NCBI GenBank assembly: GCA_965371015.1
Contig: CBDUWU010000001.1
Location: 1,368 to 65,367 of the forward strand
Origin: an uncultured bacterium
GTDB lineage: Bacteria > Krumholzibacteriota > Krumholzibacteriia > WVZY01 > JAKEHA01
Reading direction: 5' to 3'
Length of the DNA stretch: 64,000 nucleotides
The first letter of the stretch is position 1. Every line of letters starts with the position of its first letter. The notes beneath the pieces are model-generated. The model made no database searches, was not told the DNA's origin, and saw nothing but the letters and a program-made list of their open reading frames with translations. Both the position numbers and the translations under genes were made by a program. This document shows positions 1 to 56,234 of this stretch, in pieces.

Positions 1-621
1 ATGCGAAGTCTCGTGATCAACGATGTGAAGCGGGCGTTGTCCGACCTTCCCACGGCCGGAGAGCCGGTCGTAGAAGCGGAATTCCTGGAAGCCGGTTTCA
101 TGGATCCGGAGGGACGGGCGCCGGACGACAAACACGCGCGCAAGTTCGAGGAGGGGTTCATCCGGACTGAAGCCACGGCGTTTATCGACATCGAGGGAGT
201 TACGCCGGAGCAGGCGCTGAAGATATACGCGTCTGCGGAATTCCGCATGGACGTGTCTTCCCGGATCAAACGCATATACGACGACGGAGGCTCGAGCTGT
301 ATAGAGGTCAAGGGCGTCAAGGCGCTGCTCTCACCAGTGTTTTACTGCAATGAGGTGGTGGAGCTGGTAGAGCCGGGGCTGGCCTCGGAACATTCGCAGG
401 TGGTCTCGAATCCGGGTGACGGGGATTACCAGACGGTGTACTTCAAGGAAAGCGTGAAGACATTTGTTGCTGTGCCCGGCGGGCTTGCGTATCACTACAT
501 CAATTATATCCGCGCCGTGAAACTGGGCAGTATCAAGAAGAGTTTCGGGCGCGGCAAGATAGAGGATTCCGAGAAAGACAAGTTAACGGAACTTTACCGC
601 CGACTCTCGGATGGAAGCTGA
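1..621 (+). CDS. hypothetical protein (ORF opens at window edge, may be 5' truncated)
   Basis: 206-aa ORF from position 1; no motif recognised; its stop overlaps the next gene start by 11 bp. Confidence 0.4.
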   Translation: MRSLVINDVKRALSDLPTAGEPVVEAEFLEAGFMDPEGRAPDDKHARKFEEGFIRTEATAFIDIEGVTPEQALKIYASAEFRMDVSSRIKRIYDDGGSSCIEVKGVKALLSPVFYCNEVVELVEPGLASEHSQVVSNPGDGDYQTVYFKESVKTFVAVPGGLAYHYINYIRAVKLGSIKKSFGRGKIEDSEKDKLTELYRRLSDGS

Positions 622-2602
622 CCGCGTCAACCGCTTGTCCCGGCTTTCACTCGGGCGCGCCGACCTCGTGGCCACCGCCACACTCGCCGCGGCCGGCGTC
701 GTCATTGCCTGGCCGGTGTTGACCGGCGGGTATCTCACCTACCTCGATAACCCCGCCCACCTGGCCGAAGTGGGCGCCGCCGCGTTCGAGGCGTTCAACG
801 GCTGGTCGGAAACCGCGTTCTGCGGCTTTCCCGTGTCGACGCTGCATTCGCCCCTGTGGTACGGCGTGCTGTCGGCACTCACCCGTGCGGGCGTTTCGCC
901 CTTCACACTATATGCGTTGTTCGTGTGGCTGGGTTTTGTCGCGCCACCGCTGGCGCTGTACTCGGTGGCGCGGAGGGCGTTGCCGCCGCTCACCGCCGCC
1001 GTGTTGGCGTTTGTGCTCCTCGTGCAACGCCCCGCGATTGTCGGGATCGGATCGGCGCCGGGCGGGATGTGGACCTTCTACATCGCCGCGGCGGCGCTGG
1101 TCGTGCTGATCGATCGTCTGGCGCGTCCCTGCAGGTCGATGCGCGACGCGGCCGCGATCGCCTCGCTGGTTGGTTTCATCGTCGTCACGCACCTCTACGC
1201 CGTCGTACCACTGGCGCTTATCGCCGTGATCCACGCGTGGACGGTGTTGGGAAAGCGCAAGGGCGGGGAGCACGGGTTGACGTGGCAGGCCCTCGCCGCC
1301 GCCGCGGGAATCCCGGCTGCGGCCGTTTACTGGGCGCCGCTGTTGATGGCGAGGGGAACCTCGTGGTTCGAGCCGCAAAACCTCGCCGGGTCCATGGTGA
1401 TGGCGCGGCTGGCCGTGCCGACGCATGCGCTCGACCTGGTCCAGGGGCACACCGCCGGAATATCCCCGGGGTTGATCGCGGGCGCGCTGCCCATGCTCGC
1501 GCTGCTCGCGGCCGGTGTCGCGGGTATCGCTTTTCTGGGGCGTCGGAGCGACGACACGCCGCTGTACGGGGCTTTGACCGCGGCGGTCCTGCTCACACTC
1601 CTGGTCTTTGTCACCGGGGAGTTCGACGTCAAACTGCTGGGGCCGGGCAGCTGGCGGATGCTCTACTTTGTCCGGCTGGGACTGGCATTGGCCGCGATCC
1701 CGTATCTAGCCCACGTGTCCAGGCGGCCGGTGTTTCGAGTTCGCTTTCCGGCCTGGATGTTGCCGCTTCCGGTGGCCGTCGCGTTAATGATTGCGTTTCA
1801 GGCGGGTGCTCCGTTGCGGGCTGCCGTCCCCGACCCGGCCGGAAACGAAATGGACGAGGTTCGCGCGCTGTGGAAGTGGCTGGAGGAGAACAGGCAGGAA
1901 GGCTGGGGCAGGGTGTACGTACAGGACACCTTTGAAAAGCCGCGAGCGGGAGTCGAACTGAGCCAGTCGCACGTGCTCGCGCTGACCGCGCGTGAAACGG
2001 GCGTTCGCCAGCTCGGCGCGACGTACGGGGTCGTGCCCTATCTGACGGCGCGCTGGACTCCGAGCGAGTTTGGAACTCTGTTCCGCGGGATCGTCAGGGA
2101 CACCGGCGACGTAGTCCGCGTCATCGACTGGATGCGGCTCGCGAACGCCACCCACGTGGTGACTTCGGATACGAGTACCGCCCGCACGCTCGCCGTCTCT
2201 GGACAATTCGAGGAACTGTTCGCCGTCGGACGATTCAACGTGCTGCGCGCGAGTGCGATCGGGAGCGAGTGGGTTACGGCTGAGGGCACCGGTGTCGAGA
2301 CGCTCTGGGCGCGATTCGAGACCGGGCGTTACCGGATGCGGCTCAGGGGTGACGGATCCGGCAGTGTGGTGGTCAGGAGTTCGTACCATCCGTTCTGGCG
2401 CGTCGCCGGGCCCGACAGAATCGGTGTGAACGTCGAAGATACCGGTCTCATGCGGCTCGTCGATCTTCCCCCCGGCGAAGCCGAAGTGTCGATGACGTTC
2501 CTGCCGCCGGTGTGGCCGCTCCTGCTGTCCGCCTGCAGCTGGTTTGTCATCGCGGCCGTGTGGGTGGTTGCCGGGCCGGGACGGAAGCGCAGAAAAGCTT
2601 GA
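611..2602 (+). CDS. integral membrane protein, ~10+ predicted TM helices in N-terminal 400 aa plus ~260-aa soluble C-terminal domain (unknown family, possibly a GT-C-like glycosyltransferase)
   Basis: 663-aa ORF; long hydrophobic stretches (LVATATLAAAGVVIAWPVL, LYALFVWLGFVAPPLALYSV, others); hydrophilic C-terminal third. Confidence 0.5.
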   Translation: MEADRVNRLSRLSLGRADLVATATLAAAGVVIAWPVLTGGYLTYLDNPAHLAEVGAAAFEAFNGWSETAFCGFPVSTLHSPLWYGVLSALTRAGVSPFTLYALFVWLGFVAPPLALYSVARRALPPLTAAVLAFVLLVQRPAIVGIGSAPGGMWTFYIAAAALVVLIDRLARPCRSMRDAAAIASLVGFIVVTHLYAVVPLALIAVIHAWTVLGKRKGGEHGLTWQALAAAAGIPAAAVYWAPLLMARGTSWFEPQNLAGSMVMARLAVPTHALDLVQGHTAGISPGLIAGALPMLALLAAGVAGIAFLGRRSDDTPLYGALTAAVLLTLLVFVTGEFDVKLLGPGSWRMLYFVRLGLALAAIPYLAHVSRRPVFRVRFPAWMLPLPVAVALMIAFQAGAPLRAAVPDPAGNEMDEVRALWKWLEENRQEGWGRVYVQDTFEKPRAGVELSQSHVLALTARETGVRQLGATYGVVPYLTARWTPSEFGTLFRGIVRDTGDVVRVIDWMRLANATHVVTSDTSTARTLAVSGQFEELFAVGRFNVLRASAIGSEWVTAEGTGVETLWARFETGRYRMRLRGDGSGSVVVRSSYHPFWRVAGPDRIGVNVEDTGLMRLVDLPPGEAEVSMTFLPPVWPLLLSACSWFVIAAVWVVAGPGRKRRKA

Positions 2603-2779: not shown

Positions 2780-3529
2780 ATGACTGACTCGTCACCCAGA
2801 ATCATGATCGAAGCGAAGGGGCTGTCGAAGTATTACGGCCCGTTCGTCGCGATCAAGGATATTACTTTTTCCATACCGGAGGGGCAGATCGTCGCGTTTC
2901 TGGGGCCCAACGGGGCTGGCAAGTCCACCACCATGAAAATCCTCAGCGGTTATCTCGCCCAGAGCGAGGGCAGCGCGAAGATCGCCGGTTTCGACGTCAC
3001 CAACCGGCGCCTCGATGCGGCCAGACACCTCGGGTACCTGCCCGAGAACGGCCCTCTATACAATGACATGACGCCGTCGGAATTGCTGAAATTCTTCGGC
3101 GAGGCCCGCGGACTTGCCGACGACCGTCTCGCCGGGAGGCTCGCCATCGTTGCCGAGCAGTGCGCTATCCGGGACGTGTGGGAAAAGCCGATCGGCAAGC
3201 TCTCGCGGGGGTACCGGCAGCGCGTCGGCCTGGCGCAGGCGCTCCTGCACGACCCCGACGTGCTGATAATGGACGAGCCCACCGCCGGTCTCGACCCCAA
3301 CCAGATCCGCGATTTCCGTAAGAACATCAGGGCCCTCGCCGTCTCCAAGACCATTCTGATTTCGACGCATATCCTTCAGGAGGTCGATGCGGTGGCGGAC
3401 CGGCTGCTGCTCGTGCACGACGGCTCGCTGCTCTTTGACGGGACACCCGACGATTTGATGGAATCGGGGTCGCTGGAAGAACCTTTCTACCGCCTCACAC
3501 ATACTGTCGAGGGGGGTGATGGGCGATGA
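2780..3529 (+). CDS. ABC transporter ATP-binding protein, GldA-like (ABC-2 type)
   Basis: Walker A GPNGAGKSTTMKIL, signature LSRGYRQRVGLAQAL, Walker B LIMDEPTAGLD; AGGAGA RBS 5 nt before ATG at 2780; stop overlaps next gene start. Confidence 0.85.
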   Translation: MTDSSPRIMIEAKGLSKYYGPFVAIKDITFSIPEGQIVAFLGPNGAGKSTTMKILSGYLAQSEGSAKIAGFDVTNRRLDAARHLGYLPENGPLYNDMTPSELLKFFGEARGLADDRLAGRLAIVAEQCAIRDVWEKPIGKLSRGYRQRVGLAQALLHDPDVLIMDEPTAGLDPNQIRDFRKNIRALAVSKTILISTHILQEVDAVADRLLLVHDGSLLFDGTPDDLMESGSLEEPFYRLTHTVEGGDGR

Positions 3530-6174
3530 AGATCAACTGGACCATCATCAAGGCGATTTCACGACGCGACCTGAGACTGTATTTCAGTAATCCCACCGGA
3601 TACGTATTTATAACGCTGTTCATCTTCCTGAGCGCGGCGGCGGCGTTCTGGCGCGAACGCTTTTTTTTGAACAACCTCGCCAACCTGGACCAGTTAAACG
3701 ATGTATTTCCCTTTCTGCTCCTGTTTTTTATCCCCGCCATTACGATGGGGGTCTGGGCGGACGAACGGCGACAGGGAACCGACGAGTTGTTACTCACGTT
3801 GCCCGCGACGAATCTGGAAGTGGTCCTCGGCAAGTATTTCTCCACGCTGGGTATTTATACGGCGGCCGTGCTGCTGTCTCTGAGCCACCTCGTGGTCCTC
3901 TTCTGGCTGGGCAAGCCCGACCTGGGGTTGATGTTGTCCAACTACATGGGATACTGGCTCATCGGCGCGGCGTTCATTTCGATCGGGATGCTGGCGTCGC
4001 TGTTGAGTTTCAATGCGACCGTGGCGTTCATTCTTGGGGCGATATTCTGTGCCGGACTCGTTTACATAGAGCCGATACTCGGCGTGTTCGGCAGAGACGC
4101 CGAGTCGATGGTCTCCAGTATCGCCGTATTTCCGCACCTCGATGACCTGACCAGGGGCGTCGTCAGCCTGAGCGCGGTCGTTTATTTTCTTTCGATTACC
4201 GGTTTGCTGCTGTATCTCAACGTGGTTCTGCTGGGACGGCGGCACTGGCCACAGGAGACGGGCAGACTTCGGATGGGTGCCCACCAGTCGGTCCGGGTGC
4301 TGGCGCTGGTCGTTGCGCTCATCGCGTTCAATACCCTTCTCGGGCGGGGAAGCGTCCGCGTCGACATGACCGCGGAGCGCCTCCACACGCTGTCCAGCGA
4401 AACCCGCACGCTGATCTCGGAGATCTCCGTCGACAGGCCCGTGTTCGTGCAGGCTTATATCAGCCCGGAAGTCCCGCGCAACTATGTACAGGCGCGGCGT
4501 GACCTCGTCGACTACCTCAAGGACATCGCCGCCGTCGGTGGAGACCGGGTGAAGCTGGTGATACACGACGTGGAGCCGTACAGTGAAGAGGCGAGAGAAG
4601 CGAGGGACAAGTTTGGAATCATGGCGATGGAGGTTCCGGGAATCGAAGGCAGCCGGGCGAACGTCTCGACCGTCTTCATGGGCGTGGCCTTCACGTGTGG
4701 AGCAGAAGAGGATATCATTCCGTTCTTCGACCGCGGCCTGCCCGTCGAATACGAGTTGGCGCGAAGCATACGGGTCGTCGCCCGGACGCAACGCAAACGG
4801 ATCGGCGTTGTGACGACGCAAGCCAATATTTTCGGCGGATTCGATTTCAACACTTTTGCCAGCAAGCCGGTGTGGTCCGTGGTAGAAGAGCTGGAGAAGC
4901 AGTACGAAGTACTGCAGATAACGGCGGCCGATTCGATGACTGAGACCCTGGACGGTCTGCTCGTCGCGCTTCCGTCGTCGCTATCCCAGGAAGAACTGGA
5001 CAATCTCCAGTCCTTCATCGAACTCGGCATGCCGACGCTGTTGCTGGTCGACCCGTTGCCCATCGTCGAGATCGGCCTCTCGCCCTCGGAGGACGCGGGG
5101 GCAAACGTCAACCCGTTCATGCGTAACCGGGGGCCGCAGCCCAAGCCGAAAGGCGACATTCAGGTTTTTCTGCAGAACCTGGGTGTTGGCTGGAACAAGG
5201 CCCAGATCATCTGGGACGCTTACAACCCCCACCCCGACCTCGCGAACGTTCGGCCCGAGATTGCGTTTATCGGCAGGGGAAACAAGAATCCCGACTCGTT
5301 CAACGACGGCTTTCCCGCCGTGGCCGGGTTGCAGGAGCTGGTGCTTCTGTTCCCGGGCACGGTGAACAAGACGCAGTCGCCCGATTTCACGTTCGAGCCG
5401 TTGGTCAGGACGAGCAAGGTGTCGGGCACGCTGCACTATAACCAGGTCGTGCAACGGTCGTTCTTTGGTGTGGGGCTGGCGCCGGGCAATATCCCGCACT
5501 ACCCGACCGGCGGTGATTACGTGCTCGCCGCCCGCGTTCACAGCGCGTCGGCCGAAGAAGGGGGAATCCATGTAATCGTCCTTGCCGATCTGGATTTCAT
5601 CTCGGAGCAGTTCTTCGAGATTCGCAAACGGGGAATCGAAAATCTCAATTTCGACAACATATCGTTTTTCCTCAATTGTATCGACGTCCTCGTCGGCGAC
5701 GACTCGTTCATCGCGCTCCGCAACCGCCGTGTCAAGCACCGCACGCTGACCACGGTGGAGGAAAAAGTCAGGGCATTCGCGGAGATACGTGCCGTCGAGG
5801 AACAGCAGGCCGAGATGGAAGCGCAGCGTGCGCTGTCTCAGGCCCAGCAACGGCTCGACAAGAATGTCGCCGAGGTAAGGATGCGCGATGATCTCGACGA
5901 GCAGACGAAGAGCATCATGGCGAGGAACCTGCAGGAGGTCGAGAACCGGCGTCTGGAGGCGGCCAAGTCGTCGATCGAATCAGAGCGAAACGTAAAGATC
6001 GAACGCAGCGAGGAAGCCATGGAAACACAGGTACGCGCGATACAGAGCAATATCAAGACGCTCGCCGGATTGCTTCCGCCAATCCCCGTGTTTGCGCTGG
6101 GCGTGCTGATTTTTCTCAAACGGCGGCGCCGCGAAAAAGAGGGCGCGGCAGCGGCAAGAAGGTTGAGGAGTTAG
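3526..6174 (+). CDS. fused ABC-2 permease (GldF-like, N-terminal ~240 aa, 6 TM) and GldG-like auxiliary domain (C-terminal ~640 aa) with coiled-coil and C-terminal TM anchor
   Basis: N-terminal hydrophobic ABC-2 permease-like region, then a large extracytoplasmic domain of GldG/ABC-type-uncharacterised-transport-system type; C-terminal coiled coil and TM (PPIPVFALGVLIFLKRRRRE). Confidence 0.75.
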   Translation: MKINWTIIKAISRRDLRLYFSNPTGYVFITLFIFLSAAAAFWRERFFLNNLANLDQLNDVFPFLLLFFIPAITMGVWADERRQGTDELLLTLPATNLEVVLGKYFSTLGIYTAAVLLSLSHLVVLFWLGKPDLGLMLSNYMGYWLIGAAFISIGMLASLLSFNATVAFILGAIFCAGLVYIEPILGVFGRDAESMVSSIAVFPHLDDLTRGVVSLSAVVYFLSITGLLLYLNVVLLGRRHWPQETGRLRMGAHQSVRVLALVVALIAFNTLLGRGSVRVDMTAERLHTLSSETRTLISEISVDRPVFVQAYISPEVPRNYVQARRDLVDYLKDIAAVGGDRVKLVIHDVEPYSEEAREARDKFGIMAMEVPGIEGSRANVSTVFMGVAFTCGAEEDIIPFFDRGLPVEYELARSIRVVARTQRKRIGVVTTQANIFGGFDFNTFASKPVWSVVEELEKQYEVLQITAADSMTETLDGLLVALPSSLSQEELDNLQSFIELGMPTLLLVDPLPIVEIGLSPSEDAGANVNPFMRNRGPQPKPKGDIQVFLQNLGVGWNKAQIIWDAYNPHPDLANVRPEIAFIGRGNKNPDSFNDGFPAVAGLQELVLLFPGTVNKTQSPDFTFEPLVRTSKVSGTLHYNQVVQRSFFGVGLAPGNIPHYPTGGDYVLAARVHSASAEEGGIHVIVLADLDFISEQFFEIRKRGIENLNFDNISFFLNCIDVLVGDDSFIALRNRRVKHRTLTTVEEKVRAFAEIRAVEEQQAEMEAQRALSQAQQRLDKNVAEVRMRDDLDEQTKSIMARNLQEVENRRLEAAKSSIESERNVKIERSEEAMETQVRAIQSNIKTLAGLLPPIPVFALGVLIFLKRRRREKEGAAAARRLRS

Positions 6175-6176
6175 CC

Positions 6177-7550
6177 ATGAGCCAGACAAGAATTACAATC
6201 GTGTTTGTCGCCGTCGCAACCGTGCTGGTACTGCTGGCCATCGTGACGGTGCCGAAGCAGGAGATGCCGGACGCGTTCTCCGACCTGGGTGAAGAGTTCT
6301 TTCCGGAGTTTACCGATCCCAACGTGGCCAGGACACTGGAAGTGATCGACTACGACGAAGAGACCGGTTCGGCTATCCCGTTCAAGGTGACGTTCCGGGA
6401 CGGGCGGTGGACGATCCCTTCCCACTACGATTACCCCGCGGACGGGGAAGACCGTCTCGCCCGCACGGCGGCCGGGCTTATCGGCATCGCCAAGGATGAT
6501 TTCCGAACCGACAACCCGGCGGACTTCGCCGCGTGCGGCGTGATCGACCCGCTGGACGAGTCCGTCGTCGAGCTGATCGGCCGCGGCAAGCGGGTGACGA
6601 TCAAGGGTGAAAATGACGTCATTCTTGCCGACCTGATCATCGGTAAATCGTACGAGGATCGCGAGAATTTCCACCTCGTGAGGGTGCCGGGACAAAAACG
6701 GGTTTACGGCTCGCTGCTCGATGTGGATATCTCGACCACTTTCAGCGACTGGATCGAATCGGACCTGTTAAAAGTCGATAAAGATGAGATTCAATCGGTG
6801 AACCTGCAGGACTATTCGATCAACGAAATCACAAAAAAGATCGAAACGCGGGACGATATGCTTTTGATCAAGCAGGACGACGACACCTGGACGGCGACCG
6901 GTATGACGGATAACCAGGAAGTAGACCGATACAAAGCGGACAACTTCCTCAAATCCCTCGATGAGCTGGCGATCGTGGGAGTGCGACCCAAGCCCGAAGG
7001 GCTGAGCGCTACGCTGCAACGAACGAGCGGCCAGGTGCAGATTACCACGAACGACCTGATGTCGCTCCAGAGCAAGGGGTTCTACTTCACCGGTGACGGC
7101 AAGCTGCGCTCGAACGAAGGCGAACTCCAGGCCACGACGTCTCAGGGGGTGAGCTACACGCTGCGGTTCGGAGAGGTGGCGTTCGGAACGGGTATCGACG
7201 TGACCGCCGGTGCGGACACGGAACGAGAGGCCGGGGGGGCGGGCGAAAACCGCTACCTGATGATCACCACGAGTTTCGACGCGGCGATGTTTCCCGAACC
7301 GCCGTTGCCCGAAAACAAGAACTACCTGCAGAAGCCGGACAGCATGTGGACGGCGAACGACCACGGGATGAAAAACATCCAGTCGCGACACGACGAGTGG
7401 GCGCGAAGCCTGGCCGAGGGACGCCGGGTGTCCGACGAACTAAACTCGAGATTCGCGCGCTGGTACTATGTGATTTCCGCCGAAAGTTACGAGAAGATCC
7501 GGCTTACCCGCGCCGATCTCATCAAGGACAAGCCCGAACCCCGCGGCTGA
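6177..7550 (+). CDS. DUF4340-like protein (commonly partnered with GldG-family proteins), N-terminal signal anchor
   Basis: 457 aa; N-terminal TM IVFVAVATVLVLLAIV; starts 3 nt after the GldFG stop; family assignment from memory of typical GldG neighbours. Confidence 0.55.
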   Translation: MSQTRITIVFVAVATVLVLLAIVTVPKQEMPDAFSDLGEEFFPEFTDPNVARTLEVIDYDEETGSAIPFKVTFRDGRWTIPSHYDYPADGEDRLARTAAGLIGIAKDDFRTDNPADFAACGVIDPLDESVVELIGRGKRVTIKGENDVILADLIIGKSYEDRENFHLVRVPGQKRVYGSLLDVDISTTFSDWIESDLLKVDKDEIQSVNLQDYSINEITKKIETRDDMLLIKQDDDTWTATGMTDNQEVDRYKADNFLKSLDELAIVGVRPKPEGLSATLQRTSGQVQITTNDLMSLQSKGFYFTGDGKLRSNEGELQATTSQGVSYTLRFGEVAFGTGIDVTAGADTEREAGGAGENRYLMITTSFDAAMFPEPPLPENKNYLQKPDSMWTANDHGMKNIQSRHDEWARSLAEGRRVSDELNSRFARWYYVISAESYEKIRLTRADLIKDKPEPRG

Positions 7551-7582
7551 GTCCCGCCCGGGCGCTGACGAGAACAAAAAAA

Positions 7583-7610
7583 GGACCGGTTCACACCGGT
7601 CCTTTTTTTT
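7583..7610. terminator. bidirectional rho-independent terminator shared by the convergent ABC operon and the ferredoxin gene
   Basis: GGACCGGT-tcac-ACCGGTCC perfect 8-bp stem followed by T8, and preceded by A7 on the other side. Confidence 0.75.
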
Positions 7611-11410: not shown

Positions 11411-11692
11411 AGAGATCGTGCTAGACGGGGTGTTAGCGGTACCCTCTTCCCGCAATCCGCTATAGCGGGGTCGAATTCCCTCCCGCGGGCGACCGGGGTC
11501 GATGTTCACGATCGTGGAAGTGGCGTCGATGGTCAGGTCCCGCGCAATGGTCACCCACGAACCCCGTCAGGACCGGAAGGTAGCAGCGGTAACTGGATCT
11601 GATCATGTGATGCGGGGTCACCTGTCCGGAGTTAACCCGCGGTCGTGTCACGGGTCCGGCGTTCAACGGTGGGTGCACGATCTCTTTTTTTT
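11411..11692 (+). ncRNA. ffs: signal recognition particle RNA, large Bacillus-type (~275 nt), with U-tract terminator
   Basis: domain IV motif GTCAGGACCGGAAGGTAGCAGCGGTAA at 11566-11592 (about 20/22 match to bacterial GUCAGGUCCGGAAGGAAGCAGC); 5' AGAGATCGTGC (11411-11421) is exactly complementary to 3' GCACGATCTCT (11675-11685), giving a terminal helix followed by T8; sits immediately upstream of dnaX as in Bacillus. Confidence 0.6.
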
Positions 11693-11716
11693 CACCTGCC
11701 ATTTGTCGGGGGCGCG

Positions 11717-13507
11717 ATGAGCTACGAGGTTCTGGCGAGAAAATGGCGTCCGCTCAAGTTCGACGATGTCGTCGGGCAGGACCACATCACGCGGACGCTC
11801 AAGAAGGCGGTCGAGACGGACCGGGTGTCGCACGCCTACATGCTGGCCGGTCCCAGGGGCTGCGGCAAGACCAGCACGGCGCGCATCCTCGCCCGGGTGA
11901 TCAACTGCGAAACGCCGCCCGGAGATGGCAACCCCTGTAACGAATGTCCGTCCTGCATCGGCGTCATCCGGGGCAACAACCTCGACGTGATGGAAATCGA
12001 CGGTGCCTCCCACACTGGCGTCAGCGAAGTCCGCGACCTGCAGGAGAGCATCGGTTACGTCCCCAGCCAGTCCCGTAACAAGATCTACATCATCGACGAA
12101 GTCCACATGCTGTCGACGCACGCGTTCAACGCGCTCTTGAAGACGCTGGAAGAACCCCCGAATCACGTCTATTTTATTTTCGCCACCACTGCGCCCAACA
12201 AGATACCCGACACGATCAAGTCCCGTTGTCAGCGGCATCACTTCAAGCGAATGGAAATAAAAGAGATAGCCGGGCAACTAAAAAAGATCTGCGACGAGGA
12301 GGGGGTGGCAAGCGACGAAGAGGGGTTGAGACTCCTCGCCCGCAAGGCGGACGGCAGCATGAGGGACGGAACGAGTCTGCTCGATCAGTGCATCACGTCG
12401 TCGGACGGAAACATCACGACCGAATCGGTTCGAGACATCCTGGGACTGATCGACCAGGAGACGGTGTTCGCGTTCATGAGGAGTATCGCGGACGGCGATT
12501 CGACCGGGGCCCTTCGGCATTTGAGCGCGTGCATCGACGAGGGACTCGACGTCCAGGAGCTGTGCGCGGCGCTGTTGGAAGGGTACCGGGACCTGATGCT
12601 GCTGGCCACCCCGGGTGATCTCAGCGACCTGCTCTTTCGCTCCCGGGATGAAATCGAATTGATGCGCGAAATGCTTTCGGTCTACGAGTTGCCGGATCTG
12701 GTTACGATCGTGGAACGGTTGTGCGATGCTGTACCCCGGCTCAAATCGGCTGCCGATCCGAGGATTCAGCTGGAGAGCTTCCTCGTCGATCTTTCGCTGC
12801 TCGACCGACAGGTAGATATCCGCCGGCTCATCACGGACCTCGAGTCGCCCACAGGGGGCAAGGCCCCCGCAGGGGAAGGGGGTGCCGTCACGGGAACAGC
12901 TTCGCCGGCGGCGAGATCACCACGGCCGGGCTCGACAAAAAGAGATGCCTCCCCGGGGGGCGACGCGGGAAGACGGGGAAATGGTGGAGTGGAGCGAGCC
13001 GACGACGGAGAAACGGCGGGGACGGCCACTGTGATGACGCGGGACGAAGGCGCCGGAGCATTCCCGGCAAAAGATGAAAACGTCGCGTCGACGGGAGAAT
13101 TATCTCTGGATACGCACAAGATGCTGGAGCTGTGGGACGGATTCGTTTCGTTCGTCCGGCAGAAGAAGCTCCGCCTGGGCGTGAGCCTGATCTCGGGGAA
13201 GATACACTCGTTCGACGGAGCGACCTTGACGCTGCGCTTTGCCCGCAGTTTCGGTCCGCAAAAGGAACAGGTGATGAAACCGGAGAGCATGGAATATCTG
13301 CGGCGCATGCTGGCGAAGTATTTCGGGCGGGAGATCGACGTGGTGTGTTTCCAGGAAGGCGAGGAACGCGAAGCCCGGCTGGACCAGAAGGTAAGGACCG
13401 CGAAGGCGCCGACCGACCGCCTCCGTGGTATTGCGGAAGAGAAAAAACCGCTGGTGAAGAAGTTGCTCGACGAGTTCGACGGCGAAATCATCCGGTACAA
13501 CCCATGA
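11717..13507 (+). CDS. dnaX: DNA polymerase III subunits gamma/tau
   Basis: MSYEVLARKWRP..., Walker A GPRGCGKTSTARI, zinc module CNECPSCIG, IIDEVHMLS; C-terminal Pro/Gly-rich tau-like extension. Confidence 0.9.
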   Translation: MSYEVLARKWRPLKFDDVVGQDHITRTLKKAVETDRVSHAYMLAGPRGCGKTSTARILARVINCETPPGDGNPCNECPSCIGVIRGNNLDVMEIDGASHTGVSEVRDLQESIGYVPSQSRNKIYIIDEVHMLSTHAFNALLKTLEEPPNHVYFIFATTAPNKIPDTIKSRCQRHHFKRMEIKEIAGQLKKICDEEGVASDEEGLRLLARKADGSMRDGTSLLDQCITSSDGNITTESVRDILGLIDQETVFAFMRSIADGDSTGALRHLSACIDEGLDVQELCAALLEGYRDLMLLATPGDLSDLLFRSRDEIELMREMLSVYELPDLVTIVERLCDAVPRLKSAADPRIQLESFLVDLSLLDRQVDIRRLITDLESPTGGKAPAGEGGAVTGTASPAARSPRPGSTKRDASPGGDAGRRGNGGVERADDGETAGTATVMTRDEGAGAFPAKDENVASTGELSLDTHKMLELWDGFVSFVRQKKLRLGVSLISGKIHSFDGATLTLRFARSFGPQKEQVMKPESMEYLRRMLAKYFGREIDVVCFQEGEEREARLDQKVRTAKAPTDRLRGIAEEKKPLVKKLLDEFDGEIIRYNP

Positions 13508-14550: not shown

Positions 14551-14625
14551 CCGCAGCGAACCGTGCTTCGGCGCGTGTCGTGCCCTGTGCGACAACCGGT
14601 ACCGGATTCGGACTGGAGCGAGTGT

Positions 14626-15123
14626 ATGATAAAGGCTGACTGGACAATTTACGAAGAAGACTACTGGGCCATAAACAGTGTCCTCAAAGAACTCATCGAC
14701 AATTCCAATTCCCAGAGCGTGCTGCTGATAGACAAAACCGGGCAGCTCATCGCCAGCGTAGGCATGGAGCCCGAGTTTGATCTCATGAGCTTCGCCTCGC
14801 TGTGTGCGGCGGATTTCGAAGCCAATGCGCAACTGGCTAATTTGATCGGTGAAAAAGATTTTTCTACGCTGTACCACCAGGGCTCCGACGAGAGCATGTA
14901 CCTGTCAAGAGTGGCGCAGGCGATTATTCTTGTCGTGCTGTTCAACAAGCGTACGACTCTCGGTCTGGTCCGGCTGCGCGTCAAAAAAGCGGTCGAAGGA
15001 CTCAACACGATACTCAACGGTCTTTTCGATAAACTCGAATACGAAAACGAAGACCTCAAGGAATTCGACGCCGAATTTGCCGACGAGCTGAACAAAGAAA
15101 TCGATTCACTTTTCCAGGACTGA
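14626..15123 (+). CDS. mglB: Roadblock/LC7 domain protein, MglB-like GTPase-activating protein
   Basis: ~165 aa Roadblock-type sequence ([16 protein letters not shown]...) directly upstream of and co-oriented with mglA. Confidence 0.7.
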
Positions 15124-15139: not shown

Positions 15140-15724
15140 ATGTCGCTCATCAATTACTCGTCGCGTGAAATCAACTGCAAGATCGTGTACTACGGCGCTG
15201 GTTTGTGCGGCAAGACCACGAACATCCAGCACGTTTACAACAAGGTCGATCCCGGAACCAAGGGCAAGCTGATCACGCTGGCCACAGAGATGGACCGCAC
15301 GCTGTTCTTTGACTTTCTCCCGCTCGAACTGGGTACCGTCAAGGGATTCAAGACCCGGTTCCACCTCTACACCGTGCCCGGCCAGGTGTACTACGACGCG
15401 TCGCGCAAGCTCATCCTGCGCGGGGTCGACGGTATCGTATTCGTCGCCGACTCGCAGACCGCGCGCTTCGACGCCAATATCGAGAGCCTGTACAACCTCC
15501 ACGACAACCTCGATGAGTACAAGCTCAAGATCGAGGACATACCGTTCGTCATCCAGTACAACAAACGGGACATGCCGGACATCATCACCATGGAAGACCT
15601 CGAGCAGGAGCTCAATCCCGAAGGGTACCCCAGTTACGAGGCCGTGGCCGTCCAGGGCGACGGTGTGTTCGACACGCTCAAGGCCGTGGCCAAAGGCGTT
15701 CTCAAAAAACTTTCCCAGAACTGA
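15140..15724 (+). CDS. mglA: Ras-like small GTPase MglA
   Basis: [16 protein letters not shown]-loop, DTAG-equivalent TVPGQ, NKRD G4 motif; 194 aa. Confidence 0.85.
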
Positions 15725-22892: not shown

Positions 22893-24395
22893 ATGTTTCG
22901 CTTTACGATTTTGATCATCACCGCCGCCGTGTTTGTTTCGGCAGCCGTGGCGCCACTCGCCGCGCAGCGGTCGCGGGACCGCTCGACGACGGCGAGCCGC
23001 AAAGCCGACACCGACGCCGAAGAGCTCATAGACCAGCAGCAGGATCTGCTCGAGCAGCAGGCCGCGCGGCTGCAGCCGGAGGGACTCGACGCACCGGTCG
23101 ACCCGGACACCTACGTGATTGGACCGGGCGACCAGTTCATTCTGGTACTGCGCGGTCAGGATCGGCGTGAGCTGAAGCTCCAGGTGCTGCCGGAGGGCAC
23201 GATCCTGCTTCCTAACTACGGCGCATTTATGGTGGCGGGAATGACGATCACCGAACTGCGAAACCGGCTCGGCGAATCATTGAAGAAATATTACAAAAAC
23301 ATCGAGTTCGACCTGCAGCTGGTTGTGCCCAGGGCGTTCGTCGTTTACGTTCTCGGCGAAGTGGAGATTCCGGGCGCGGTCCGTCTGCATGCGCCCTTTC
23401 GGGTGAGCTCGGCCATCGAAGCGGCCGGCGGCGTCAAGCGCAGGGGAAGCCGCCGGTTCATCGAAATCGTGGAAGACGGCGAGGCCGTTCGCCTGGTCGA
23501 CCTGGTCTCGTTTCTCAGCCTGGGGGACATCGAGGCCAATCCCGCGCTGAAAGAAAAGCAATCCGTTTATGTGCCGCCGATGCAGGCGTTCGCCCAGATC
23601 CACGGCGAAGTGTGGAACCGGGGTCCCTACGAGGTCAGGCCCGGAGAGACCATTGCCGACGTGATCCGCCTGGCTGGCGGGACGACGAGTTTTGCCGATC
23701 TCGACCGTGTCATCCTCGAGCGTCACAGCCCGACCGGATGGGCATCGATCGAACACTATACCTCGGCGGACCTCGACACCGTCGTCGTCGTCGACCGCGA
23801 CCAGATCGTGATACCCGACGCGCGTACGTTCGGCAGCGGCGACTACGTGCTCATCAGTGGCGGTGGGGGACGCGAGGGGAAGGTCTATATCGAAGAGGGG
23901 GAGACCATCGCCGATTTCACGCCGCGATTCTACCGGCTCATGGAAAATCACGACATCAGCCGCGCCGTCATTGAGCGGAGTTCGGATGACGGCACAGTCG
24001 AATACATAAAAGTCGATCTCGAGAAGGTCATCTCGGGCGAGGCGGACGGAAACATACTCCTCGAGGACCGGGACATCATCAGCATACCGAAGGCGGAATA
24101 TTTTGTGTACGTTGCCGGTGAGGTGACCGATCCGGGAGCGATCCCGTTTCAACGCGGCATGCCGGCGGAACGGTATATCGCCATGGCCGGCGGGCCGTCC
24201 CGCAACGGGAGTATGAACAAGCTGACAATTTTTGGCAAAGAAGGCACCAGCCGCAGCGGAGATCGCAACAGCACCGTTTACCGGGGTGACACGATTCTGC
24301 TCGAGCGAACCCTGACCAGCTACGTGGGACCAATATTCATCGGGCTGACCTCTCTCACAAGTCTGGTTCTTTCGGTTATCGCGGTGTCGAGGTAG
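22893..24395 (+). CDS. polysaccharide export protein, Wza/KpsD-like (Poly_export + SLBB domains) with C-terminal TM
   Basis: signal peptide; DTYVIGPGDQFILVL Poly_export motif; repeated beta-grasp SLBB-like segments; C-terminal hydrophobic helix. Confidence 0.75.
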   Translation: MFRFTILIITAAVFVSAAVAPLAAQRSRDRSTTASRKADTDAEELIDQQQDLLEQQAARLQPEGLDAPVDPDTYVIGPGDQFILVLRGQDRRELKLQVLPEGTILLPNYGAFMVAGMTITELRNRLGESLKKYYKNIEFDLQLVVPRAFVVYVLGEVEIPGAVRLHAPFRVSSAIEAAGGVKRRGSRRFIEIVEDGEAVRLVDLVSFLSLGDIEANPALKEKQSVYVPPMQAFAQIHGEVWNRGPYEVRPGETIADVIRLAGGTTSFADLDRVILERHSPTGWASIEHYTSADLDTVVVVDRDQIVIPDARTFGSGDYVLISGGGGREGKVYIEEGETIADFTPRFYRLMENHDISRAVIERSSDDGTVEYIKVDLEKVISGEADGNILLEDRDIISIPKAEYFVYVAGEVTDPGAIPFQRGMPAERYIAMAGGPSRNGSMNKLTIFGKEGTSRSGDRNSTVYRGDTILLERTLTSYVGPIFIGLTSLTSLVLSVIAVSR

Positions 24396-24423
24396 CATCA
24401 ACGAAGAAGGGATGTGATCGGTC

Positions 24424-25491
24424 ATCAAAGCGCTGATACTGGCAGGGGGTAAGGGCACCCGGCTGCGCCCGATCACGCACACGAGCGCCAAGCAGCTCGT
24501 ACCGGTGGCGAACAAACCGATACTGTTCTACGGCATCGAGGCGATACGCGACGCGGGAATCTCCGACATCGGTATCGTCGTCGGAGACACGGCACCGGAG
24601 GTAATGGACGCCGTCGGCGACGGATCCCGTTTCGGAGTCAGGGTGAAATACATACCACAGGAAGCACCGCTGGGATTGGCGCACGCAGTCAAGATATCGC
24701 GGGATTTCTTACTGGAAGATCCATTCGTCATGTATCTCGGCGACAACCTGCTCAGCGGCGGCATCAAGAGTTTTGTCGAGGACTTCGACCGGGGCGACTA
24801 CGACTCGCAGATCCTGCTGGCCCGGGTCAAGAACCCCAACGAATTCGGCGTCGCCGAGCTCGACGGAGGCCGTGTAGTCGGGTTGGAAGAAAAGCCCAAA
24901 AAGCCGAAGAGCGACTACGCGCTGGTCGGTGTGTACATGTTCACTTCCCGGATCTTCGAAGCGACCGCGAAAATCAAACCGAGCTGGCGCAACGAACTCG
25001 AAATCACCGACGCCATTCAATATTTGATCGACCAGAACTACGTCGTCAATTCACACGTCGTCGAGGGGTGGTGGAAGGATACCGGAAAGCTCGAAGACAT
25101 GCTCGACGCCAATCGTATGATTCTCACGGCGGCGCGGGCGACCAAGGTGGAGAGCGAGCAGTTCGAGGATTCGGAGTTTCACGGGCAGGTGCAGCTCGAC
25201 GAAGGGGTCACGGTGAAGAGGAGCGTGCTGCGCGGTCCCTGTATTGTCGGCGCCGGTTCGACAATCGTCGATTCGTACGTAGGGCCGTTCACCAGCGTCG
25301 GTCCCAGGACGCGAATCGAGAGCAGCGAGATCGAAAACAGTATCGTGATGGAAAACTGCACGATCACCGATATCAGCAGCCGCATCGGAGGAAGCCTGAT
25401 AGGAAAGAATGTAACGATCAATCGTTGCGTAAAGCCGCCGCGTAACTACGGTTTTATGGTCGGGGACAACAGCGAGATTACCGTCCTGTGA
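24424..25491 (+). CDS. sugar-1-phosphate nucleotidylyltransferase, long-form RmlA-like with C-terminal left-handed beta-helix; canonical start codon missing
   Basis: homology (KALILAGGKGTRLRPITHTSAKQLVPVANKP) begins at 24427, upstream of the first ATG (24505); in-frame TGA at 24415 leaves only ATC/CTG as possible starts; RBS GAAGGG at 24406. Confidence 0.65.
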   Translation: MKALILAGGKGTRLRPITHTSAKQLVPVANKPILFYGIEAIRDAGISDIGIVVGDTAPEVMDAVGDGSRFGVRVKYIPQEAPLGLAHAVKISRDFLLEDPFVMYLGDNLLSGGIKSFVEDFDRGDYDSQILLARVKNPNEFGVAELDGGRVVGLEEKPKKPKSDYALVGVYMFTSRIFEATAKIKPSWRNELEITDAIQYLIDQNYVVNSHVVEGWWKDTGKLEDMLDANRMILTAARATKVESEQFEDSEFHGQVQLDEGVTVKRSVLRGPCIVGAGSTIVDSYVGPFTSVGPRTRIESSEIENSIVMENCTITDISSRIGGSLIGKNVTINRCVKPPRNYGFMVGDNSEITVL

Positions 25492-25499
25492 GGTGAAGC

Positions 25500-26099
25500 T
25501 TGAACAGTATCGAAGACATTGACCTCAAAGCGCTCATCCTGTCGCGAAAGCGGCTGCTGGATTTCCTGAGCGAGGACGGCGCCGGGAATATCCGCGCCAT
25601 TGCGGCTGCGATGGCCCGGTGCCTCGACGATGGCGGCACCATATATGCCTGCGGCAACGGGGGGAGCGCGTCCCAGGCCGAGCATTTTTCCGCCGAACTG
25701 GTCGGGAGATTCTACCAGGACCGGCGCTCGCTGCCCGTTTACTCGCTGGCGGAAAACGGCGCCGTGTTGAGTTCGTTGGCCAACGACTATTCGTTCGAAC
25801 ACGTTTTTGCCCACCAGATTGCTGGTGTGGGCAGCGAGGGCGACTGCCTGCTCGCCCTGTCGACGAGCGGTAACTCCGAGAACGTCGTTCGGGCCTGCCG
25901 GGAGGCGAAGAAAAAAGGTATGCACGTTTTTTCGCTCACCGGTGAGGGGGGCGGTCGTGTCGCTCCCGAATCCGACATCGTCATCGCGGTTCCCGACACC
26001 GACACCGCAAGCGTCCAGGAGATTCACCTCCTCGTCGTCCACCTCATCTGCCAGCTGGTCGAGACGGCACTGTTTCGCGCGAAGGATGGAAAGCAGTAA
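25500..26099 (+). CDS. gmhA: D-sedoheptulose-7-phosphate isomerase (SIS domain)
   Basis: 199 aa; CGNGGSASQAEHF, ALSTSGNSENV SIS motifs typical of GmhA. Confidence 0.8.
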   Translation: MNSIEDIDLKALILSRKRLLDFLSEDGAGNIRAIAAAMARCLDDGGTIYACGNGGSASQAEHFSAELVGRFYQDRRSLPVYSLAENGAVLSSLANDYSFEHVFAHQIAGVGSEGDCLLALSTSGNSENVVRACREAKKKGMHVFSLTGEGGGRVAPESDIVIAVPDTDTASVQEIHLLVVHLICQLVETALFRAKDGKQ

Positions 26100-27234
26100 A
26101 CGCCCCAGATTGCTGTATCTCGTAACAGAGGACTGGTACTTCTGCTCGCACCGGCTCGCCCTCGGCCGTGCTGCCGTGCGGGCCGGTTACGACGTGACGG
26201 TCGCCACCCGTGTCCACAAGCACGCGCCGGCTATTACCGAAGCTGGAATGAACGTCGTGGCCCTGCCATGGAGCCGCCGGTCGACCCTCCCCTGGAACGA
26301 GCTCCGCACGCTGGCCTCGCTGTACAAACTTTACAGGAATTTCCGACCCGACCTGGTGCACCACGTTGCGCTCAAGCCGGTGTTCTACGGCTCGATGATT
26401 GCGCGAATCGCCCGCACCAGGCGGGTGATAAACGCCGTCGCCGGATTCGGATACAGCTTTGTCGCCTCCGGGGCGCGGGCGGCCTTGGCGCGCGGGATCC
26501 TCGACACGACTTTCCGGGTCCTCTGCAACCGTCCAGGCGCAAGAGTGCTGGTCCAGAACCCCGACGACGAGCGCGTTCTCGTGGAAGACGGCACGGTCGC
26601 CGCCGGCCGGGTGGTGGTCATCCCGGGGTCGGGGGTGGACACGGACCGGTTCGCGCCGGCCCCGGATGGTATGCCGGACGGCAGGGTGCGGGTTACGCTG
26701 GTGTCGCGCATGTTATGGTCGAAGGGAGTTGGCGAGTTCGTCGATGCGGCGCGGATCCTGCGCCGCCGGGGAATAGATTTCGAAGCGGTGCTCGTTGGAA
26801 GCCCGGATCCGGAAAACCCGCAGGCGATTCCGGAGGAAACGTTGCGGGGCTGGCGCGACGAAGGTGTCGTGGGCTGGCTTGGACACGTCGACGACGTTCC
26901 CTCGGTATGGGCCCGCTCGCACGTCGCCGTCCTTCCCAGTCACCGCGAGGGGTTGCCCAGAACACTCCTCGAAGCGGCCGCCTGCGGTGTGCCGATGGTC
27001 GCCACGGACGTCCCCGGTTGCCGTGAGGTCGTCGTCGACGACCGCAGCGGATTACTCGTGCCGGCGCGGGACGCTTCCGCCCTGGCCGACGCGATCGAAC
27101 GGCTCATATCAGAGCCCGCAACGCGGCGGGAGATGGGCCGGGCGGCTAGAGCCGATGCGGTAGAAAAATTCTCGGAGCCGGTCGTGATCGAAAAAATGCT
27201 GGCACTTTACCGCTCGATGCTGGAGGACGCGTGA
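26086..27234 (+). CDS. glycosyltransferase GT4 family
   Basis: PSHREGLPRTLLEAAACGVPMVATDVPGCREVVVDDRSGLLV (EX7E region); 383 aa; overlaps gmhA stop by 14 nt. Confidence 0.8.
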   Translation: MESSKRPRLLYLVTEDWYFCSHRLALGRAAVRAGYDVTVATRVHKHAPAITEAGMNVVALPWSRRSTLPWNELRTLASLYKLYRNFRPDLVHHVALKPVFYGSMIARIARTRRVINAVAGFGYSFVASGARAALARGILDTTFRVLCNRPGARVLVQNPDDERVLVEDGTVAAGRVVVIPGSGVDTDRFAPAPDGMPDGRVRVTLVSRMLWSKGVGEFVDAARILRRRGIDFEAVLVGSPDPENPQAIPEETLRGWRDEGVVGWLGHVDDVPSVWARSHVAVLPSHREGLPRTLLEAAACGVPMVATDVPGCREVVVDDRSGLLVPARDASALADAIERLISEPATRREMGRAARADAVEKFSEPVVIEKMLALYRSMLEDA

Positions 27235-28241
27235 ATGACGCCGCGGTCAAAACTAGTTTCTATGTCACCGGGGCATCCGGTTTTCTCGGCCGCCGTGTCT
27301 GCTCGAGGCTGGCGGCGCACGGGACGGTGCGGGCACTGATGAGGTCGGCGGTCGACGGGCCGTGGGACGCCGTCGACATGGTCGACCTGGCCAAAGACCC
27401 ACCACCGCCGGGCGCGCTCGCGGGCGTCGAAACCGTCATCCATCTGGCAGCACGCACGCACGCGGTCGATGAATCCGGCGATACCGAGGGACTGTACCGC
27501 GCTATCAACGTGGACGGCACCCGCCGCCTGCTCGAGGCCGCGAAGAGCGCCGGGGTCCGCCGATTCGTGTTTGTCAGCAGCGTCAAGGCGATGGGTGAGG
27601 GCGGGGACGGGGTGCAGGACGAGACGGCGACGCCGGTTCCCGCGACCTGGTACGGAAAGACCAAGCGCGCCGCCGAGACGATGGTGATGGACGGCTCCTG
27701 GCCCCACGAGGCCGTCGTGCTGAGGCCGGCATTGATGTACGGGAAAGGAGTGGCCGGGAACGTGGGACGGATGATCGAAGCGGTGCGGGCCGGGCGGTTT
27801 CCGCCGGTACCCGAGGTGGGCAATTCGCGCTCGATGGTTCATGGCGACGACGCGGCCCACGCCATCGTTCTCGCGGCGACCGGCGCGCGCGCCGCCGGCC
27901 GGTTGTTCATCGTAACCGATGGCCGGCCGTGTTCGACGCGGGAGATGTACGAATGGATATGCAAGGCGCTGGGGCAGACACCGCGGAGGCGGACACCGCC
28001 TCTGTCGATGTATCGCGGCCTGGCGAAAGTGGGCGACGTTCTGGGACGGCTCCGGGGCAGGCGCTGGATATTCGATTCGGAAGCGTTTGGCAAGCTCTTC
28101 GGGTCGGCCGCCTACGATTCGTCGGCGATCTGCCGCGAACTGGGTTTCGAGCCGAAGTGGACGTTCCGGACGGCTTTGCCGGAAATGGTTTCGGGCGCGA
28201 CGGAATCCGCTGCGACGGATTCTGCGGGACAAAGGGGGTAA
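27231..28241 (+). CDS. NAD-dependent epimerase/dehydratase (SDR family)
   Basis: VTGASGFLGRRV Rossmann motif, YGKTK catalytic Y-x3-K. Confidence 0.8.
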   Translation: MNDAAVKTSFYVTGASGFLGRRVCSRLAAHGTVRALMRSAVDGPWDAVDMVDLAKDPPPPGALAGVETVIHLAARTHAVDESGDTEGLYRAINVDGTRRLLEAAKSAGVRRFVFVSSVKAMGEGGDGVQDETATPVPATWYGKTKRAAETMVMDGSWPHEAVVLRPALMYGKGVAGNVGRMIEAVRAGRFPPVPEVGNSRSMVHGDDAAHAIVLAATGARAAGRLFIVTDGRPCSTREMYEWICKALGQTPRRRTPPLSMYRGLAKVGDVLGRLRGRRWIFDSEAFGKLFGSAAYDSSAICRELGFEPKWTFRTALPEMVSGATESAATDSAGQRG

Positions 28242-28247
28242 CCGGAA

Positions 28248-30149: not shown

Positions 30150-30239
30150 GGCCGGTTGTGGTCCGTGCCGCCTCCGGAGAGTGATTTATTTTCTTGTCTT
30201 ACCGGCTGTGTCTACATATCCTGAAACATCCTCTGACGA

Positions 30240-30260
30240 CGCGGGAATACCGCGGGAATA
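30240..30260 (+). repeat. tandem direct repeat CGCGGGAATA(c)CGCGGGAATA upstream of the phosphotransferase fusion gene
   Basis: two 10-bp units spaced by 1 nt, 26 nt upstream of the GTG start at 30286. Confidence 0.5.
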
Positions 30261-30285
30261 TTAATGAAACCGAGGGACTGACGAC

Positions 30286-33123: not shown

Positions 33124-34013
33124 AACAGTTCTTCTTTGTACTTCAGTCGATGCGGCCCGGCCAGTGGACCAAAAACCTCGTGGTGTTTGCCGGACTCGTC
33201 TTCTCGCAAAACCTTTTTGATCGCCAGCTCGCCGCCAAGAGCGTCGAAGCTTTTGTCGTGTTCTGCCTGTTGTCGGGGATGATCTATCTCGTCAACGACA
33301 TAGCCGATATCGAGCGTGACAAGCTCCACGCCCGCAAGAAGCACCGTGCGCTGCCCTCCGGGCGCCTCAAACTATCGACGGCGGTGGTTGCGTCGATCGT
33401 CGGAACACTGGCCGGCCTCTATCTCGCCTGGCTGGTTGGGCGCGAGTTTTTTGTCGTCGCCGTCGTGTTCTTTGCGTTGAACATGCTATACTCGTTCGTC
33501 ATCAAGCGTATTGTGCTTCTCGACGTGATGAGCATTTCGATCAGTTTCATACTGCGCGCGATCGGGGGAGTGGAAGCCCTGCGCAGTCTGGAGCCGTCGA
33601 TCGAGATATCGCCTTGGCTCTTGATCTGCACCCTGTTCCTTTCCCTGTTTCTCGGGTTCTGCAAACGACGGCACGAGCTGGTCACCCTGTCCAACGCCCA
33701 CCAGCACCGGCGGTCTCTGCGGGAATATTCGCCGGCGCTGCTCGACCAACTCGTTGGAATCACCGCAGGCGGGTCAGTGCTCGCGTACGCGATATACACA
33801 ATCTGGCCCGACACCGTGGACAATTTCGGCTCGACGGACCTGGTTTATACAGTGCCGCTGGTTCTGCTCGGCGTCATGCGCTACCTTTACCTGGTCTACA
33901 CCCAGCAGAAGGGCGGAAGCCCCTCCGAGCTCCTCCTCCACGAGAAATTCCTGCTGGTCACGGTTGTCACGTGGGGCGCTCTGGTGATTGTGTTGTTGGG
34001 TGGATTCAGGTAA
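33120..34013 (+). CDS. UbiA-family prenyltransferase, decaprenyl-phosphate phosphoribosyltransferase (DPPR synthase)-like
   Basis: RPGQWTKNLVVFAGLVFS and YLVNDIADIERDKLHARKKHRALPSG resemble Rv3806c-type DPPR synthases (from memory); 8-9 TM helices. Confidence 0.7.
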   Translation: MKQFFFVLQSMRPGQWTKNLVVFAGLVFSQNLFDRQLAAKSVEAFVVFCLLSGMIYLVNDIADIERDKLHARKKHRALPSGRLKLSTAVVASIVGTLAGLYLAWLVGREFFVVAVVFFALNMLYSFVIKRIVLLDVMSISISFILRAIGGVEALRSLEPSIEISPWLLICTLFLSLFLGFCKRRHELVTLSNAHQHRRSLREYSPALLDQLVGITAGGSVLAYAIYTIWPDTVDNFGSTDLVYTVPLVLLGVMRYLYLVYTQQKGGSPSELLLHEKFLLVTVVTWGALVIVLLGGFR

Positions 34014-48046: not shown

Positions 48047-48130
48047 TACCCCTGCGATAGCAGAAATCGTCGGGTCCATCAAGGACTTTGGCCGGGAAGC
48101 GGGGCACCAAAAGGTTGGAATTAATAACGA

Positions 48131-55931: not shown

Positions 55932-55939
55932 ATCATATG

Positions 55940-56059
<120 letters not shown>

Positions 56060-56234
56060 TCATGGCAGGCGTACACGGCGCGCCCCTTTCCGGGGGCGGT
56101 GCAGGTTGACGTCCCCTCGGGGATGTCCGCCGGCTTATATATCCCTGTATTCTCCCTCGATTTCCCCCGATCGTTACCGGTAAAAGCCGCACAACTTGTA
56201 ATACGACCACGCGCCGGCCCCGACGCCGGCCGAT

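Follow-up and report, generated by a model that had tools for sequence, protein, structure and literature searches.

Within a 64,000-nucleotide (nt) stretch of an uncultured member of the Krumholzibacteriota (assembly GCA_965371015.1, contig CBDUWU010000001.1, positions 1,368 to 65,367; hereafter the window), positions 2780-7550 of the forward (+) strand constitute a compact, self-contained three-gene operon for an inner-membrane ATP-binding cassette (ABC) machine of the ABC-2 (type V) class. The operon encodes an ATPase, an 882-amino-acid (aa) protein that joins a permease to a large extracytoplasmic module resembling GldG of the Bacteroidetes gliding transporter GldA-GldF-GldG (GldAFG), and a DUF4340 protein. 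The identity and architecture of the three proteins, as set out below, are assigned with high confidence. Judged by sequence comparison, the fused layout is no special variant but the usual form of a very large family.

The operon and its boundaries comprise the following features.

2651-2680, + strand: promoter-like site TTGAAA-18-TACAAT, 10/12 matches in a consensus scan (a consensus match only)
2780-3529, + strand: ABC ATPase gene, 249 aa (ABC_tran, PF00005)
3526-6174, + strand: fused permease/GldG-like gene, 882 aa (Pfam, hydropathy and AlphaFold2 model)
6177-7550, + strand: DUF4340 gene, 457 aa (PF14238)
7576-7609, + strand: intrinsic-terminator-like hairpin of 15 pairs followed by a T run, closing the operon

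These open reading frames (ORFs) agree with the original prediction of an operon made up of an ATPase, a fused protein and a DUF4340 partner, of which some junction details required correction. The ATPase starts at ATG 2780, downstream of a Shine-Dalgarno sequence (GAGGAG); GTG 2735 is its start in the mechanical ORF list. The gene caller likewise gives 249 aa for the ATPase of a 96% identical relative, the metagenome contig L081. The ATPase and fusion genes meet in an ATGA start/stop overlap at 3526-3529, in line with the overlaps that had been described; the second junction is not an overlap but reads TAG-CC-ATG, so that the DUF4340 gene does follow the fusion, across a gap of 2 nt rather than the 3 nt previously given, with a GAGGAG-like Shine-Dalgarno sequence ahead of its ATG. 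The ATGA overlap, the 2-nt gap, the promoter-like site and the terminator-like hairpin together give the locus the appearance of a closed three-gene operon. No second, unfused copy of the module was found in the 64-kb window.

The fused protein is organized along its length as follows.

3526-4260, + strand: ABC-2 (type V) permease module, residues 1-245, six transmembrane helices
4288-4344, + strand: seventh transmembrane helix, residues 255-273, N-terminal anchor of the GldG-like module (hydropathy)
4375-4692, + strand: DUF7088 (PF23357), residues 284-389, first periplasmic alpha/beta domain of the GldG-like module
4792-5679, + strand: ABC_transp_aux/GIFT domain (PF09822), residues 423-718, GATase1-like fold
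5749-6072, + strand: long helical hairpin, residues 742-785 and 792-849, running into the C-terminal anchor (AlphaFold2 secondary structure)
6061-6174, + strand: C-terminal transmembrane anchor, residues 846-864, with basic cytoplasmic tail and stop codon (hydropathy); RRRREKEGAAAARRLRS

Pfam searches identified ABC2_membrane_5 on residues 60-185 of the permease (30.0 bits against a cut-off of 25), with three further ABC2 models scoring just under their cut-offs, and recovered both DUF7088 (58.3 bits against 27.8) and ABC_transp_aux (122.6 bits against 34.7), the latter placing the protein in the ABC_transp_aux/GIFT superfamily. The profile check proposed along with the original prediction thus returned ABC2_membrane_5, ABC_transp_aux and, in the third protein, DUF4340, all above their cut-offs. 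Hydropathy analysis located the six permease helices within residues 24-236, and the large extracytoplasmic domain lies between the N-terminal and C-terminal membrane helices at 255-273 and 846-864, as expected of that superfamily. The AlphaFold2 model (mean predicted local distance difference test score, pLDDT, 78) matched NosY and ABCG-type (type V) permeases over the first module and the GIFT domain of IFT52 and OST48 over the second, consistent with the type V fold of NosY, ABCG, Wzm and CcmB and with the GATase1-like/flavodoxin-like GIFT fold. Two long helices that follow the GIFT domain (742-785 and 792-849), rich in E, R, A and Q, run into helix 8 and correspond to the feature formerly described as a coiled coil. 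Hydropathy, Pfam and the structural model therefore agree with the earlier description of a six-helix ABC-2 permease joined to a GldG-like extracytoplasmic domain with a coiled coil and a C-terminal anchor. Neither the fused protein nor the DUF4340 protein, nor an alignment of either, gave a usable match in sequence and profile searches of the PDB.

A six-helix ABC-2 permease usually has both termini on the cytoplasmic side, so that the polypeptide would cross to the periplasm through helix 7 and come back through helix 8. As this is the two-anchor arrangement expected of a GldG-type protein, the fusion is topologically coherent.

The partner proteins are equally well defined. The ATPase matches ABC_tran (PF00005) at 101.5 bits and retains intact Walker A (GPNGAGKS), Q-loop, LSRG signature, Walker B (VLIMDEP) and H-loop motifs, as expected of the adjacent cognate ATPase of an ABC-2/type V permease. 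Against the GldA equivalog model TIGR03522 it scores 256.8 bits (cut-off 402.6), aligning with model positions 3-221 of 301 only and lacking the C-terminal ~80 positions; on these scores it is classed as GldA-like and not as the equivalog. The third protein belongs to the DUF4340 family (PF14238, residues 78-276, 60.5 bits against 25), as had been proposed. Hydropathy gives it one N-terminal membrane helix (6-24), which anchors the protein and leaves the remainder in the periplasm, and its AlphaFold2 model (pLDDT 85.9) is a chain of small beta-rich domains followed by a long helix (393-426), with no informative relative among solved structures.

Could the fusion be an artefact, in which a frameshift or an assembly error had joined separate gldF-like and gldG-like genes? 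The chance of this is negligible. An independent metagenome contig of the Joint Genome Institute (JGI; L081, sample 3300033144) is syntenic with the window and 96% identical, with genes of exactly 249, 882 and 457 aa, so that the same 882-aa ORF recurs there. A homology search matched 5,926 proteins, the best 120 of which are all 879-905 aa long and carry the same Pfam set. When all representatives of 50%-identity clusters were searched (11,970 matches, 1,153 at E<=1e-30), ~140 of the best 150 were at least 829 aa long and nearly all spanned 860-1200 aa; the shorter ones inspected were mostly contig-edge fragments lacking a start methionine, and the only one of them resembling a possible stand-alone GldG-like protein was P0311 (681 aa). 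Finally, the alignment with relatives is continuous across the permease/GldG junction, and the linker itself is conserved. In-frame fusion of the GldF- and GldG-like parts into 882 aa, as originally predicted, is thus borne out by the independent contig, the lengths of the homologues and the linker.

The same layout proved widespread. A scan of one genome per GTDB species yielded 211 loci with a relative, covering at least seven phylum-level labels, and 80 of these were kept for comparison: 79 at 54-63% identity to the window protein and one (L030) at 96%. Labels of the metagenome-assembled genomes (MAGs) that carry the module include Acidobacteriota (many), Calditrichia, Zixibacteria, KSB1, Ignavibacteriales, Cytophagia/Bacteroidota and Myxococcota. 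The ATPase gene lies directly upstream of the fused gene in 79 of the 80 loci, at ~66-77% identity (99% in the near-identical locus), and the DUF4340 gene directly downstream in 77, at 47-67% identity, all exceptions for either gene being contig ends. Clustering of the flanking ORFs across the 80 loci revealed no other family in more than eight of them. Identity of the fused protein was 0.58-0.69 between groups and 0.66-0.78 within groups, which indicates that it evolves slowly and largely follows lineage. With 54-96% identity over ~98-100% of the query and the same gene order, the window operon is a member of this fused permease-GldG plus DUF4340 module.

No database record holds the exact sequence of the window protein; the nearest is 96% identical (P0001/L081), and a cluster at 76% identity is named Candidatus Krumholzibacteria, from which the phylum of the window is probably the same. 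Fused proteins appear at NCBI as 'Gldg family protein' and at JGI as 'ABC-2 type transport system permease protein', at least one JGI entry having a combined gldF/gldG name, so the fused architecture is already in the annotation record; no paper discussing it was found in the literature searched. These 'Gldg family' proteins share the Pfam architecture, the flanking ATPase and DUF4340 genes and the length (~880-900 aa) of the window protein, with no notable difference. The original prediction had regarded a fused variant in an organism with MglAB as a useful handle on function, a view that the occurrence of this standard architecture in many phyla does not sustain.

The kinship with Gld proteins is more distant than the names imply. 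The three Gld equivalog models are the best NCBIfam matches of the window proteins, yet all score far under their trusted cut-offs: besides the ATPase, the GldF model TIGR03518 reaches 128.3 bits against 288.5 on residues 9-236 of the fused protein, and the GldG model TIGR03521 reaches 59.4 bits against 389.85, its best stretch being residues 259-378 only. The label 'Gld' therefore applies only at the superfamily level. The earlier designation as Gld-type stands at that level, through ABC_transp_aux and DUF7088, and fails at the level of all three equivalogs; we class the family as a paralogue or distant relative of Bacteroidetes GldA/GldF/GldG and not an orthologue. GldAFG of Flavobacterium johnsoniae and F. 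psychrophilum resembles the window module in combining an ATPase, a six-helix ABC-2 permease and a two-anchor periplasmic ABC_transp_aux/GIFT protein. Whereas gldF and gldG are adjacent genes in Flavobacteriia (PMC5682007), the F and G modules of the window form one polypeptide, and its carriers lie in many phyla outside the Bacteroidota. GldG of F. psychrophilum measures 559 aa, and its gene follows gldF and is itself followed by dnaN rather than by a DUF4340 gene (PMC5682007); the GldG-like part in the window is ~630 aa long, mostly unaligned to the GldG model, and the fused gene is followed by DUF4340 at 77 of 80 loci.

These differences bear on the proposal, implicit in the original prediction, that the operon encodes a true functional GldAFG gliding transporter, merely fused, which works with MglAB in surface motility. 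Among the carrier lineages are several of the FCB (Fibrobacteres-Chlorobi-Bacteroidetes) group, relatives of the Bacteroidota, and the rank of the Gld models among the NCBIfam matches agrees with such a role. So does the presence in the same window of genes for MglB (Robl_LC7, 186-aa ORF; 14563-15123, + strand) and MglA (194 aa; 15140-15724, + strand), the latter 69% identical to what we take to be the MglA sequence of Myxococcus xanthus. The claim that the organism also has MglAB is accordingly correct, but the mglBA pair lies 7 kb downstream, separated from the operon by the terminator, ferredoxin and glycosyltransferase genes on the opposite strand, three tRNAs, the signal recognition particle (SRP) RNA, dnaX and recR; it is unlinked to the module, and in none of the 80 loci does it stand beside it. 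Nor was any gld, spr or type IX secretion system (T9SS) gene found among the window ORFs scanned, which encode housekeeping and polysaccharide-synthesis proteins. The sub-threshold scores of all three Gld proteins, the missing C-terminal part of the GldA model, the dnaN gene in place of DUF4340 after gldG in F. psychrophilum (PMC5682007) and the occurrence of the module at ~60% identity in Acidobacteriota and Myxococcota MAGs likewise tell against a gliding transporter, which we regard as improbable. As a separate observation, mglB-mglA directly follows recR and precedes cinA-recA-alaS, in the same order as in the 96% identical contig.

Residue conservation was compared among close relatives and among relatives at 35-56% identity. 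Among the former, R239 and W241 are invariant in the GRRHW linker directly after helix 6; among the latter, R239 and R257 are at least 95% conserved. The most conserved stretch at 35-56% identity comprises residues 61-100, between helices 2 and 3 and on the cytoplasmic side by topology, which matches the region in which type V permeases contact their ATPase. In the periplasmic module, again at 35-56% identity, D280, D509, D688, D720 and R732 are invariant and E410, S484, D690, N711 and N717 nearly so. Two candidate functional sites were rejected. One was a catalytic site of the Ser-His-Asp type within the GATase1-like domain; it would involve S484 and D509, which are conserved, but H569 falls below 80% in the same set. 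The hairpin tip RxDLDxQTK (787-795) was considered as a docking site; it is kept, with the rest of the hairpin, in relatives of at least 60% identity, but the hairpin is the least conserved part of the protein at 35-56% (mean column identity 0.31-0.35). For an envelope protein the fused polypeptide is unusually well conserved, at ~0.58-0.69 identity across phylum labels, with ~70% for its ATPase partner.

Taken as a whole, we consider it moderately probable that the module is a general envelope ABC machine moving a membrane-derived substrate. Its parts differ in strength: the broad distribution favours a general cell-envelope function over a gliding-specific one, which we regard as probable, and the export or extraction of a membrane-derived substrate is put forward tentatively. 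By analogy with solved type V ABC transporters, and because the three genes occur together so strictly, the complex would consist of (ATPase)2(permease-GldG)2 plus the DUF4340 protein. Binding and hydrolysis of ATP would shift the permease helices, and the motion would pass straight to the covalently attached periplasmic module. In the weakest step of this scheme, an amphipathic envelope component, such as a lipid, a lipid-linked glycan or a lipoprotein-like molecule, would be drawn from the inner membrane and handed to the periplasmic scaffold formed by GIFT and DUF4340. In favour of DUF4340 as a subunit we count an AlphaFold-multimer prediction of the complex for an unfused four-gene version (ATPase, permease, GldG-like and DUF4340 proteins) in the SAR11-related HIMB59 (bioRxiv 10.64898/2025.12.11.693642). 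An envelope role is also on record for the Bacteroidetes relatives: without gldG or gldF, the lipoproteins GldJ and GldK become less stable and secretion through the T9SS is impaired (PMC5682007, PMC9127263).

Other considerations weigh against substrate movement. The closest solved permease, NosY, is a mechanotransducer and not a transmembrane exporter, which favours the main alternative, in which ATP hydrolysis, with no transmembrane substrate, only drives conformational work in the periplasmic assembly of GIFT domain, hairpin and DUF4340; this assembly would act on a periplasmic or outer-membrane partner, for instance by loading, releasing or stabilising envelope proteins. Precedents are NosDFY and, in other ABC classes, LolCDE, FtsEX and MacB. 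A periplasmic module covalently attached to the permease would be ideal for passing force, NosY is the top structural match, and the conserved polar GIFT residues D509, D688, D690, N711, N717, D720 and R732 would fit a candidate partner or ligand site. The Flavobacterium phenotype points the same way, cells that lack GldF or GldG having less stable GldJ, GldK and GldN rather than a block in a known export step (PMC9127263, PMC5682007). Against a mechanotransducer stand the lack of a NosD-like beta-helix or other recognisable effector domain and of any conserved partner gene nearby in the 80 loci, and we judge it fairly unlikely. Two further points count against a general machine for a membrane-derived substrate: the module may have a role in motility in some lineages, and a substrate is known for no member of the superfamily, GldAFG being credited with 'no clear function' (PMC10202324).

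The recurrence of the same three genes at ~60% identity across at least seven phyla, with no conserved neighbour, also suggests a more specific version of the envelope-machine reading, namely that the module is a previously unrecognised housekeeping machine for trans-periplasmic hand-off of lipids, lipoproteins or glycolipids, distinct from Lpt, Lol and Mla. We offer this as a speculative proposal of rather low probability. If it is true, the substrate of the machine would also explain why GldAFG is needed for gliding and type IX secretion in Bacteroidetes.

Comparison with other known systems delimits these analogies. NosY, the best structural match of the permease module, shows 17-19% identity in structural alignments. 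NosDFY (NosY permease, NosF ATPase and NosD) shares with the window module the type V ABC core and a large periplasmic partner on the permease, and shows as a precedent that ATP can drive work in the periplasm. The window module differs in having no NosD beta-helix, NosL, NosZ or copper context, and its periplasmic part is GIFT/GATase1-like and covalently fused; as no NosD-type domain occurs in the operon and the neighbouring genes are unrelated to a nos context, it does not belong to the NosDFY group, and the resemblance is limited to the permease fold. IFT52 and OST48/Wbp1, which carry the GIFT domain, are eukaryotic scaffold subunits that function without an ABC transporter and have no bearing on the substrate. 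The unfused four-gene clusters of HIMB59 and of Verrucomicrobium spinosum (VSP_RS39600) share the whole module set, including DUF4340, and differ in that the permease and the GldG-like protein are separate genes. For the V. spinosum DUF4340 gene VSP_RS39600 the published account is ambiguous: the text calls the domain essential, but the overall call for the gene in the supplement is non-essential, with essentiality indicated only by a sliding-window method.

The locus itself matters little, being one more copy, 96% identical to a known sequence, of a family present thousands of times in public data. The family, by comparison, is where knowledge is really lacking: many phyla carry this strongly conserved ABC machine, with its GIFT periplasmic module and DUF4340 partner, and no functional study of it outside the Bacteroidetes was found in the literature searched. 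The gene fusion argues, by 'Rosetta-stone' reasoning, that GldF-like and GldG-like proteins act as a 1:1 physical unit, and the constant presence of a DUF4340 gene alongside suggests a third structural subunit, one not considered in the Flavobacterium work.

Several further features of the window were recorded. Upstream of the operon, at 1-2602 (+ strand), lie two ORFs, one of 206 aa that is cut off by the start of the window and one of 663 aa; Pfam matches neither, and both are kept only in the near-identical contig L081, not in the other 80 loci. The 620-aa dnaX ORF (11645-13507, + strand) has its listed GTG start inside a large bacterial SRP RNA (195 bits; 11416-11680, + strand), and its true start is for this reason probably further downstream. 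In L081, dnaX is called as two ORFs (224 and 322 aa), which suggests a frameshift, whether programmed or erroneous, or an assembly difference. A cluster for polysaccharide synthesis and export at 22893-34013 (+ strand) encodes a Wza-like Poly_export/SLBB protein, an NTP transferase, a GT4 glycosyltransferase, an asparagine-synthase-like amidotransferase, a protein of 945 aa in which a Glycos_transf_4 (WecA-like) domain is joined to a CoA_binding_3 domain, and a UbiA prenyltransferase. At 45698-48082 (- strand), a 794-aa protein carries an N-terminal Amidase_3 domain (N-acetylmuramoyl-L-alanine amidase, residues 67-247) and a C-terminal region of ~550 aa with no reported Pfam family; after its gene, selA (48186-49610) and genes for a SPOR-domain protein and SMC follow on the + strand. 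Lastly, a flavin mononucleotide (FMN) riboswitch (117 bits; 55937-56062, + strand) lies upstream of ribD (56235-57404).

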